From sequence record OR532847.1: 44,819 nt of DNA, one strand, 5' to 3'. The position numbers were made by a program, and so were the translations under genes. Numbering within the stretch: position 1 is the first letter of the stretch; every line of letters starts with the position of its first letter. This DNA comes from Klebsiella phage RCIP0053. This document shows, piece after piece, positions 541-1,378 of this stretch. Under the pieces are notes generated by a model. It saw only the letters and a list, made by a program, of their open reading frames with translations. It was not told the DNA's origin and searched no databases.

Positions 541-1378
541 AAACTTTAACAATGTCGTCTATAAACCATTTTAATTCGGTGGAACTCAGCCCTAACATGG
601 GAAGACAATACCGAGCTAGGGCTAACGCCCGAGTGTAACGACTAGCCGAAAGGCGTAGGGCCAAGTGGCTCGAAACTTATGGGTGCAGTTATATGCACAA
701 GATATAGTCTACTCTGCATAGAGATATGCAGCATCTCTTAAGGAGGTCTAACATGACCAAGCGTAATAGTGTTAAAGATACATCAGCATTTCGTACCAGA
801 AAGTATGATGTAGGAAGTATCATCAAGACTAAATATGGCGATGTAAAGATACTAGAAATAATTAAAGGTTATACAGATAGTGCTGGCAAGAGGTTTCGCA
901 CTAGGTGTGTTTGTATCTTCCTAGCCACTGGTTATGTAACTAATTGCCAACTATCTAACCTTACTGTCGGTAAGGTGAAGGATATGAGGATGCCAACAGT
1001 GTATGGCGTTGGTTACATAGGGTCTGACATCAAGATAACAGCTCGCGGAACTTATGTTCGTAGGTTATATGACCTATGGGCTAACATGCTTAAGCGTTGT
1101 TATTTTAAGTCTGGTACAAGAAATGATGAAATTTACAAGGATGTAAAAGTTGATACAAGATGGCACAGTTTCACAAACTTTATGAACACTATACAAGACG
1201 TAGAGGGGTTTGAGCTGTTTGAAGCAGGGCTTGATGTTGCACTTGATAAAGATATAAAGGTCAAGGGTAATAAAGTCTACTCAAGAGATACCTGCATGTT
1301 TGTATCAACAAGGGATAACACTATTGCAGCACTTAATAAGAGGTGGCATGGAAAGTAACGAAGCCATGTTAATAAAGG
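541..1378 (+). mobile_element. group I self-splicing intron in the terminase large subunit gene, carrying an endonuclease ORF
   Basis: Conserved core shared with three other copies (AATTCGGTG...AATACCGAGC...GTAACGACTAGCCGAAAGGCGTAGGGC...GATATAGTCT). The P7-like GACTA/TAGTC pairing resembles the Tetrahymena core. Internal guide GTCGTCT (554-560) pairs with the exon end AGACGAT via a G.U pair. The terminal G is at 1378. The exon join restores a T7 gp19-like alignment (ADD|IESLQNS...). Confidence 0.75.
753..1358 (+). CDS. intron-encoded putative homing endonuclease (W..M..RC..Y...W..F..F family, often annotated HNH)
   Basis: ORF 726..1358. Good RBS AAGGAGG before ATG 753. Located in the 3' region of the intron, after the P9-like hairpin. 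Motif LWANMLKRCY...VDTRWHSFTNF... is typical of phage homing-endonuclease-like proteins. Confidence 0.5.
   Translation: MTKRNSVKDTSAFRTRKYDVGSIIKTKYGDVKILEIIKGYTDSAGKRFRTRCVCIFLATGYVTNCQLSNLTVGKVKDMRMPTVYGVGYIGSDIKITARGTYVRRLYDLWANMLKRCYFKSGTRNDEIYKDVKVDTRWHSFTNFMNTIQDVEGFELFEAGLDVALDKDIKVKGNKVYSRDTCMFVSTRDNTIAALNKRWHGK

Follow-up and report, generated by a model that had tools for sequence, protein, structure and literature searches.

The window analysed in this work is the whole stretch of 44,819 nucleotides from Klebsiella phage RCIP0053 (OR532847.1), which shares 98-99% identity with Klebsiella phages RCIP0089 and vB_Kp_Z1 (Gajwadongvirus, Autographiviridae). It opens with terL, the gene of the terminase large subunit (TerL), which appears here in two pieces. 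The list of open reading frames (ORFs) of the window contains two TerL ORFs in different frames, 1..549 and 1388..2689, and these cover positions 5-179 and 183-390, respectively, of the phrog_17672 profile. A third ORF of 201 amino acids (753..1358) lies between them. All of the features described at this locus are on the + strand. Judged from sequence comparison, and with a probability of about 0.93, the region 541-1378 represents a mobile group I intron of subgroup IA2 that interrupts the terL gene of a Gajwadongvirus-like (Autographiviridae) Klebsiella phage.

Comparison with intron-less alleles revealed that the insertion in terL is exact and comprises 838 nt (541-1378). When 1-540 and 1379-2689 are joined, the resulting gene of 1851 nt has the length of the unbroken terL of Klebsiella phage Roth32 and Escherichia phage ECBP5. 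The 616-residue product aligns gap-free with the TerL of Roth32 (99.7% amino acid and 97.3% nucleotide identity) and of ECBP5 (99.5% amino acid identity), and it matches the solved T7-like TerL 8dgc_E (E = 7e-84) without a gap across the junction. Uninterrupted terL genes of 1851 nt are also carried by Pectobacterium PP99, Pseudomonas MR4 and Vibrio JSF38. The junction is ambiguous by one nucleotide (A541 vs. A1379). Group I introns follow the rule that a U precedes the 5' splice site and a G is the last base of the intron, and the junction was therefore set to 540/1379. The joined exons then read GACGAT/ATTGAA (the slash marks the junction), and intron-less terL of the Roth32 type reads CTTGCTGATGAT/ATTGAGTCACTT, the Roth32-type target being likewise CTTATCCTTGCTGATGAT/ATTGAGTCACTTCAA.

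Exon 1 (1..540) encodes TerL residues 1-180, ends in the Walker B sequence LILADD, matches phrog_17672 with E = 3e-73, and is collinear with terL of Roth32 and ECBP5. Exon 2 (1379..2689) encodes residues 181-616, which include the catalytic glutamate after Walker B, the remaining ATPase domain and the RNase H-like nuclease; it matches PF22530 (Terminase-T7_RNaseH-like, E = 1e-34) and phrog_17672/15524. The break thus falls just after the Walker B aspartates (LILADD/IE). The frame of exon 1 ends at TAA 547-549, nine bases into the intron and in the loop of P1, and early in-frame stops are also found in the terL introns of the metagenomic contigs L011, L015 and L019. A first-pass annotation of the window, made from the letters alone, had described TerL pieces in different frames separated by about 840 nt, and had proposed that joining 540 to 1379 restores a T7 gp19-like protein. 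Both pieces have terminase-family matches, and these points stand. Its division of the protein into an ATPase half and a nuclease half has to be corrected, since the break sits within the ATPase domain. It had also noted that the spacing between ADD and EF is the same as in T7 gp19; the equality holds, and the distance is 21 residues in both proteins rather than 23.

The first 190 nt at the 5' end of the insertion fold into a group I catalytic core. P1 is formed by the exon end AGACGAU (534-540) and the internal guide GUCGUCU (554-560), with a U540.G554 wobble, and the 5' splice site follows U540. The hand model contains no P2. All four pairs of P3 (566-569 with 679-682) change on both sides. 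P4 of the hand model (576-581 with 609-614), P5 (586-587 with 604-605) and P5a (590-592 with 599-601) were recovered in the minimum-energy fold. P6 pairs 615-617 with 632-634, and P6a pairs 619-622 with 627-630; pair 621-628 is seen as G-C, A-U, U-A and C-G. P7 consists of GACUA (640-644) and UAGUC (705-709). This helix and the conserved J8/7 segment AAGAUAU, just 5' of the 3' strand of P7, were placed by the Rfam alignment, in which the J8/7-P7 sequence AAGAUAUAGUC aligns to the Intron_gpI model. P7.1 (645-647 with 652-654, GAAA loop) is joined by the linker G655-U656-A657 (655-657) to P7.2 (658-662 with 667-671); both helices, as well as P8 (683-687 with 694-698), show changes on both sides. 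P9 (714-731) has a GAGA loop on a 7-bp stem, of which five pairs show changes on both sides in the 12-intron alignment described below. The minimum-energy fold of 534-735 gave P1 and P4-P9 unaided (z = -3.6), and 0 of 200 shuffled sequences were equally stable. The P7.1-GUA-P7.2 arrangement without P2 is the IA2 hallmark of the polymerase introns of phiI, W31 and Pf-WMP3 (PMC3428280). Because P7.1-GUA-P7.2 is present and P2 is absent, we assigned the terL intron to subgroup IA2 by the criterion of that study, which asks for two additional helices, joined by G-U-A, between P7 and the 3' strand of P3.

At the 3' end of the intron, a P9.2-like terminal hairpin (1345-1351 with 1364-1370) contains the stop codon of the intron ORF (1356-1358) in its loop. 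The hairpin is predicted in all eight terL introns examined, 8-12 nt before the terminal G, and is homologous to that of the related introns in polymerase and portal genes. In the Edwardsiella phage its U1349-A1366 pair is changed to C-G, a compensatory change. The 3' splice site (1378/1379) follows G1378; a G stands right before exon 2 in the same eight terL introns, and the intron-less alleles place the exon boundary at this position. P10 was read from the sequence as four base pairs between CAAU (550-553) and AUUG (1379-1382), the first bases of exon 2. This pairing (CAAU with AUUG or GUUG) is kept in the Edwardsiella phage and in contigs L011, L015 and L019.

Several other placements were tried and rejected. 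A first model of P3 (566-571 with 663-668) was given up after comparison with L011 and L013, in which 658-671 forms the local hairpin P7.2 with compensatory changes. An extension of P3 (570-572 with 673-675) is invariant among close copies and becomes U.U or C-G in other clades. Splicing at G731, the end point of the Rfam match, would in the window bring exon 1 into frame with the ORF leader; this 3' splice site was rejected as a conserved feature, L012 having a stop there. An intein or a group II intron was set aside, as the frames of the TerL pieces differ, the insert has stops, and Rfam scans of the window gave no family besides Intron_gpI over the intron region.

In E-value mode, the full-length Intron_gpI model of Rfam (RF00028, positions 1-253) aligned with 515-731 and scored 37.8 bits, with E-values of 7.5e-8 for the region and 3.2e-6 for the window as a whole. 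This score is below the gathering cut-off of 50, and a gathering-mode search of the window returned nothing. The same model scored 26.2 bits with a sequence homologue of the terL intron in the polymerase gene of Yersinia phage Berlin, an intron annotated as a joined coding sequence, and 62.9 bits, above the cut-off, with an ORF-less homologue in Ralstonia phage DU_RP_I. The Rfam threshold thus misses introns of this clade that lack P2 and diverge in their peripheral parts.

Covariation gave a further measure of the fold. Among the five closest terL introns, 98.9% of the alignment cells were paired and 14 of 57 pairs changed on both sides, compared with 0-2 in slid controls, in which the pairing partners were shifted by 1-3 columns; none of 500 shuffles reached the observed values. 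A covariance model built from these five introns, R1, scored 276.8 bits with the intron of the window, and its full-length matches made up a set of 12 related introns. In this set 35 of 49 pairs changed on both sides (7-12 in slid controls) and 98.7% of the cells were paired, a share that is inflated because the alignment was fitted to the model; the slid controls and an independent MAFFT alignment agree with the result. The U.G pair at the 5' splice site is invariant in all 12 introns, and the other six pairs of P1 change on both sides, tracking the exon. P7 is invariant, so covariation is silent on this helix. R1 detected the intron in all intron-bearing loci, including those of Yersinia phage fPS-9 (111 bits) and Salmonella phage Vi06 (91 bits), both T7-like isolates, and gave no match in the intron-less loci of Roth32 and ECBP5. 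Given the Rfam E-value, the fold z-score and the covariation shuffles, chance is excluded as the source of the group I signal. The features described in the first-pass annotation, namely the P7 core GACTA/TAGTC, a GNRA-capped hairpin and a P9 hairpin (P7.1 and P9 are both GNRA-capped), and the guide GTCGTCT pairing with the exon end AGACGAT through a G.U pair, were all found. Its proposal of a group I intron interrupting terL is thus supported by the Rfam match, by a covariation-backed model and by homology of the core to the polymerase introns of T7-like phages.

From this anatomy a splicing mechanism can be proposed. The pre-mRNA would fold into the ribozyme core P3-P9, and the guide at 554-560 would pair with the last seven exon bases into P1, in which U540.G554 would mark the point of cleavage. 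Attack by an external guanosine would take place after U540, CAAU 550-553 would pair with AUUG 1379-1382 to give P10, and G1378 would enter the guanosine site so that the exons are ligated. The product would be one TerL of 616 residues with its Walker B motif (ADD/IE) restored. Ribosomes coming from exon 1 would halt at TAA 547-549, ahead of the core. The ORF, which occupies the P9.1 position and has its own ribosome-binding site, most likely encodes, on comparative evidence, a divergent HNH-like homing endonuclease. This enzyme would cut intron-less terL in mixed infections, and repair would then copy the intron, with some flanking exon sequence, into the cut allele.

Besides the Rfam score below its cut-off and the fitted 12-intron alignment, several points weigh against a mobile group I intron that splices in this way. 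P10 is weaker in contigs L012, L013 and L018. No P9.0 pairing of J7/9 (710-713) with the bases before G1378 holds across relatives, and J3/8 is nearly missing from the hand model. Since splicing depends on cellular factors in some phage introns (PMC11878797), self-splicing in the strict sense cannot be taken for granted. The published descriptions of vB_Kp_Z1, of the Edwardsiella phages and of the fPS phages make no mention of an intron in terL. The remaining points concern the ORF. Together with 49 homologues it gave no match in Pfam, in NCBIfam or, by sequence, among solved structures, and the canonical HNH histidine is not conserved, the corresponding motif being L164-D165-K166-D167 ... N189.

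The ORF is well defined as a reading frame. A Shine-Dalgarno sequence AGGAGG (741..746) stands 6 nt before ATG 753, and AGGAGG(N6)ATG is kept in the five closest introns. In the model alignment of fPS-9, AGGAGG is followed by CCUAAC, which reaches the base before the annotated ORF start; the records of relatives likewise place the start at the equivalent of 753. ATG 726 was rejected as the start, as it lies inside P9 and the conserved ribosome-binding site serves ATG 753. The ORF is located between P9 and the 3'-terminal hairpin, where polymerase introns have a small P9.1 hairpin; the final codons of the ORF supply the 5' strand of the 3'-terminal hairpin. Its ratio of nonsynonymous to synonymous substitution (dN/dS, 0.09-0.19) indicates that the ORF is functional.

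The family relations of the ORF point to an endonuclease. It matches phrog_2081 (E = 1e-43), phrog_953 and phrog_374, all named "HNH endonuclease", and a study of Bastillevirinae placed endonucleases of polymerase introns in phrog_2081 (PMC11878797). Its homologues form 242 protein clusters, and its C-terminal domain occurs in more than 1100 phage records, most of them annotated as HNH endonuclease. One homologue (28% identity, E = 5e-16) is the protein of Vibrio phage ICP1 that is encoded right after the DNA polymerase gene; the two proteins share L-D-K-D-I ... G-N-K-V-Y ... C ... N. The conserved motifs of the family are YDLWANMLKRCY, VDxRWHSFxNF, and L-D-K-D ... N189, and the residue preceding L-D-K-D is a histidine in many members and an alanine in the ORF of the window. 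In the predicted structure (predicted local distance difference test, pLDDT, 89), an N-terminal Tudor/SH3-like barrel is followed by a helical middle part and a C-terminal strand-strand-helix unit. The C-terminal domain was modelled alone after Foldseek had found no match in the PDB for the nuclease part, and the modelled HNH-like beta-beta-alpha nuclease fold is weakly supported. The first-pass annotation had called the ORF an endonuclease; an intact ORF is indeed present in the intron, and the activity, in view of the missing domain matches and histidine, follows by inference only.

The ICP1 protein probably belongs to the IPA-HNH class of Barth, Dunham and Seed 2023 (PMC10448857), and may be gp59 of that study. 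Like the IPA-HNH genes (PMC10448857), the ORF of the window has a putative, divergent HNH-like domain missed by the HNH models of Pfam. No AP2 domain was detected in the ICP1 protein or in the window ORF. Unlike IPA-HNH proteins, the window ORF appears from its model to use the N-terminal Tudor/SH3-like barrel as its DNA-binding part.

The intron and its ORF are found together at one site in diverse hosts. In nine of nine independently checked relatives (Edwardsiella phages, six metagenomic contigs, Vi06 and fPS-9) the ORF lies in the same terL intron, and all copies share the insertion site GACGAU/. The introns of three Edwardsiella phages are 91% identical to that of the window. At the same terL site, the ORFs of contigs L011, L012 and L013 are 56-74% identical to that of the window, and those of L015, L017/L018 and L019/L020 are 44-55% identical. 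About 30 isolate records carry the terL intron. The view that introns are rare in the terminase genes of T7-like phages applies to sequenced isolates and fails for metagenomes, where the terL intron is common. L012 (ENA ERZ27260030, k141_12438), whose terL is called as four pieces, gave a second R1 match (4386-4593, 110 bits) inside exon 2, so one terminase gene can carry at least two introns of this ribozyme lineage.

The distribution is patchy, with the intron present in RCIP0089 and vB_Kp_Z1 and absent from Roth32, ECBP5, PP99, MR4 and JSF38. The exons of the window and Roth32 show 50 differences, and nt 528-579 of the joined gene contain 14 of them against an expected 1.4. Synonymous divergence (pS) in the comparison with Roth32 reaches 0.30 near the site (exon nt 301-600) and is about 0.03 away from it (0.00-0.07 in 601-1350), a pattern that indicates, from the sequences compared, the trace of co-conversion from a diverged donor. 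Synonymous differences are dense at the site itself (528-540 and 1379-1417), for example Ser-Leu encoded by AGT/TTG vs. TCA/CTT in Roth32. The cluster at the site is probably a co-conversion tract plus changes that keep the allele with the intron safe from the endonuclease it encodes. Before the junction, both lineages with the intron carry GCAGACGAT, which matches the guide perfectly, and the intron-less alleles have GCTGATGAT. Between the window and the Edwardsiella phage, synonymous divergence is 0.31 in the intron ORF and 0.64 in terL, which suggests that the intron is younger than the split of its hosts. The patchy distribution, the co-conversion-like tract and the low synonymous divergence indicate homing.

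Introns of the same lineage occur in other genes of these phages. The R1 model matches the polymerase introns of DU_RP_I, VL73, phiEa1H and Berlin, with polymerase introns scoring 65-124 bits, the portal-gene intron of Pectobacterium PP90, and three further introns in the window's gene for DNA polymerase. The latter gene (18612-22706) is split at about 20241-20451, 20681-21336 and 21764-22383. One of these introns is ORF-less (R1, 90 bits), and the others contain an Endonuclease VII ORF (20958-21224, Pfam E = 5e-24) and an HNH_3 ORF (21828-22244, E = 7e-15). In PP90 (about 23.6-24.4 kb) an intron of this lineage with an HNH ORF interrupts the head-tail connector (portal) gene; the portal intron is present in about 35 Pectobacterium phage records, in which the portal pieces are annotated as separate genes.

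The terL intron resembles the polymerase introns of T7-like phages closely in its core. Its segment 633-676 is 100% identical over 44 nt to phiEa1H, blastn matches span 633-742, and the IA2 layout without P2 and with P7.1-GUA-P7.2, a similar guide and a homologous 3'-terminal hairpin are shared. It differs from them in its target, the Walker B site of terL rather than the DNA polymerase gene, and in its ORF. The terL ORF has about 200 amino acids, lacks a Pfam model and follows P9, whereas the ORFs of polymerase introns belong to the Endonuclease VII or HNH_3 families and are found in P6a, upstream of P7 (PMC3428280). The ORFs in the polymerase introns of the window also sit between the 5' and 3' halves of the core, in accord with the contrast in ORF position drawn in the first-pass annotation. 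The 5' exon ends and guides are alike, with AGACGU/ and GCGUCU in polymerase introns (L006 960-990, L007 1140-1170, L009 1394-1420) and AGACGAU/ and GUCGUCU in terL. The likeness of these target sequences would allow reverse splicing between the genes.

This likeness is also what a change of site by reverse splicing would need, and it bears on whether the ORF is a homing endonuclease at all. The ORF might not be, or might no longer be, such an enzyme; it could be a binding or helper protein (maturase) or another nuclease, in an intron spread by recombination or reverse splicing. The lack of Pfam and NCBIfam matches, the missing catalytic histidine and the N-terminal barrel, which is a nucleic-acid- or protein-binding fold, would be in keeping with this view. 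However, the ORF is under strong purifying selection and is bound to one insertion site in every checked context, and the dense tract of synonymous differences centred on that site is the footprint expected of break-induced co-conversion. Its PHROG relatives are intron-encoded endonucleases of polymerase introns (PMC11878797), and its C-terminal domain is shared with the many phage genes annotated as HNH endonuclease, one of them the polymerase-adjacent gene of ICP1 (PMC10448857). We thus regard a non-homing role as rather improbable, and the comparisons make it probable that the ORF encodes an active homing endonuclease.

A wider reading, which we put forward only tentatively and consider somewhat doubtful as a whole, would join these observations. 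The ORF may represent a distinct homing-endonuclease family specialised on the Walker B site of T7-like terL, GACGAU/RUUGA, with a variant beta-beta-alpha site (D-K-D ... N, histidine replaced). A single ribozyme lineage might then have spread into polymerase, portal and terminase genes across the Autographiviridae, picking up different endonuclease genes at distinct peripheral positions (P6a vs. P9.1), and the shift to terL might have come about by reverse splicing into the look-alike AGACG(A)U.

Splicing itself would be dispensable if a free-standing homing endonuclease gene had invaded terL and the terminase were assembled from fragments, that is, from residues 1-182 and a protein started at TTG 1388. 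Genes in pieces have a precedent in some split phage ribonucleotide reductases. The records of relatives do annotate two separate terminase coding sequences, and in the window the AAGGA ahead of TTG 1388 could allow translation to begin at this codon. However, this start codon is not conserved (CTT in Roth32 and CTA in the Edwardsiella phage), and the break would divide one ATPase active site, separating the Walker B aspartates from the following glutamate. The exons join to the exact ancestral length and frame. Furthermore, a complete ribozyme with strong covariation is present in all copies, and its selection would be left unexplained without splicing. Close relatives carry either the same intron or one unbroken gene, which also removes the case of a naturally two-protein terminase that the first-pass annotation had raised. 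A split terminase that is not spliced is thus very unlikely. A decayed, non-splicing intron remnant in a terL pseudogene, for which the joined and pseudo annotation of gene 19 of Vi06 and the Rfam score under threshold could be cited, can for practical purposes be dismissed: several of the phages with the intron have been described as lytic isolates, a second terminase gene was seen neither in the terL neighbourhoods retrieved nor among the hits to terL (whole genomes were not scanned), the helices of the core are all preserved, with compensatory substitutions, and the exons are under strong purifying selection (nonsynonymous divergence, pN, 0.004 vs. Roth32).

A mobile group I intron in terL can be compared with several known systems. 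Lactobacillus phage LL-H has a group I intron in its terminase large subunit gene. The intron in the nrdD (sunY) gene of T4 is reportedly a phage IA2 intron with its ORF, I-TevII, 3' of the catalytic core. In T4 nrdD the 3' splice site lies far from the core and has to return via P9.0/P10-type pairings. The terL intron has the same layout of a phage IA2 intron with an ORF 3' of the core; the comparison covers this layout. It differs in its host gene and in that I-TevII is a GIY-YIG enzyme, whereas the terL ORF is HNH-like at best. Terminase introns whose splicing was shown by reverse transcription PCR or RNA sequencing are known from Shewanella phage KASIA, Vibrio phage ICP1, Bacillus phage SIOphi and other Bastillevirinae (PMC8541194, PMC10448857, PMC11878797), and a review counts terminases among the typical targets of phage introns (PMC3984707). 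Group I introns in the terminase genes of other phages are thus already known. The terL intron described here is like those of KASIA, ICP1 and SIOphi in targeting the same essential gene, but these belong to other phage families with TerL proteins that are not closely related, and the comparison covers the target gene. In ICP1 (PMC10448857) the endonuclease gene lies beside the intron, and in the terL intron the ORF is inside.

Our literature search found no description of a terL intron in T7-like phages. In related records (L003, L004, L005, L021 and L022) the intron is unannotated, and the locus is given as two terminase genes plus a hypothetical protein or an HNH endonuclease. Gene 19 of Vi06 is flagged as a pseudogene. 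In the record of the Edwardsiella phage the second TerL piece starts at an ATG made by the last three bases of the intron.

Two other RNA-like features of the window were observed. A tRNA-like element at 23585-23662 scored 35.3 bits with the tRNA family of Rfam (cut-off 29) in E-value mode; it was not listed in gathering mode and not called by ARAGORN. Its acceptor, D and T arms fit, and the anticodon arm is replaced by CCA-GAAA-UGG. The element is flanked by two copies of a phage-promoter-like motif, CACTACAATAG (23571 and 23672), and a near-match, GTACTACAATAG, is found near 2727. At 33562-33642, Rfam gave a weak match for anti-hemB, an sRNA of Burkholderia, that scored 26.4 bits (E = 0.036) against a cut-off of 49.5 and most likely arose by chance.

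The finding leaves the understanding of group I introns unchanged. Its first consequence concerns the records: at least about 30 T7-like phage records mis-list terL as two genes plus a hypothetical protein, or as a pseudogene, among them phages that are candidates for therapy against Klebsiella, Edwardsiella, Salmonella and Yersinia. Any terminase tree made with these pieces is based on a truncated protein, and recognition of the intron gives the correct TerL of 616 residues. With four related ribozymes, three endonuclease families and two ORF positions in one 45-kb genome, the phage offers a compact case of the independent assembly of introns and mobility genes. The ORF of the terL intron defines a large putative endonuclease family without a Pfam model, apparently tied to a single conserved target, and an enzyme of this kind might find use as a rare-cutting nuclease or nickase. 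The terL intron also makes it possible to trace gene flow between T7-like phages that infect different hosts.

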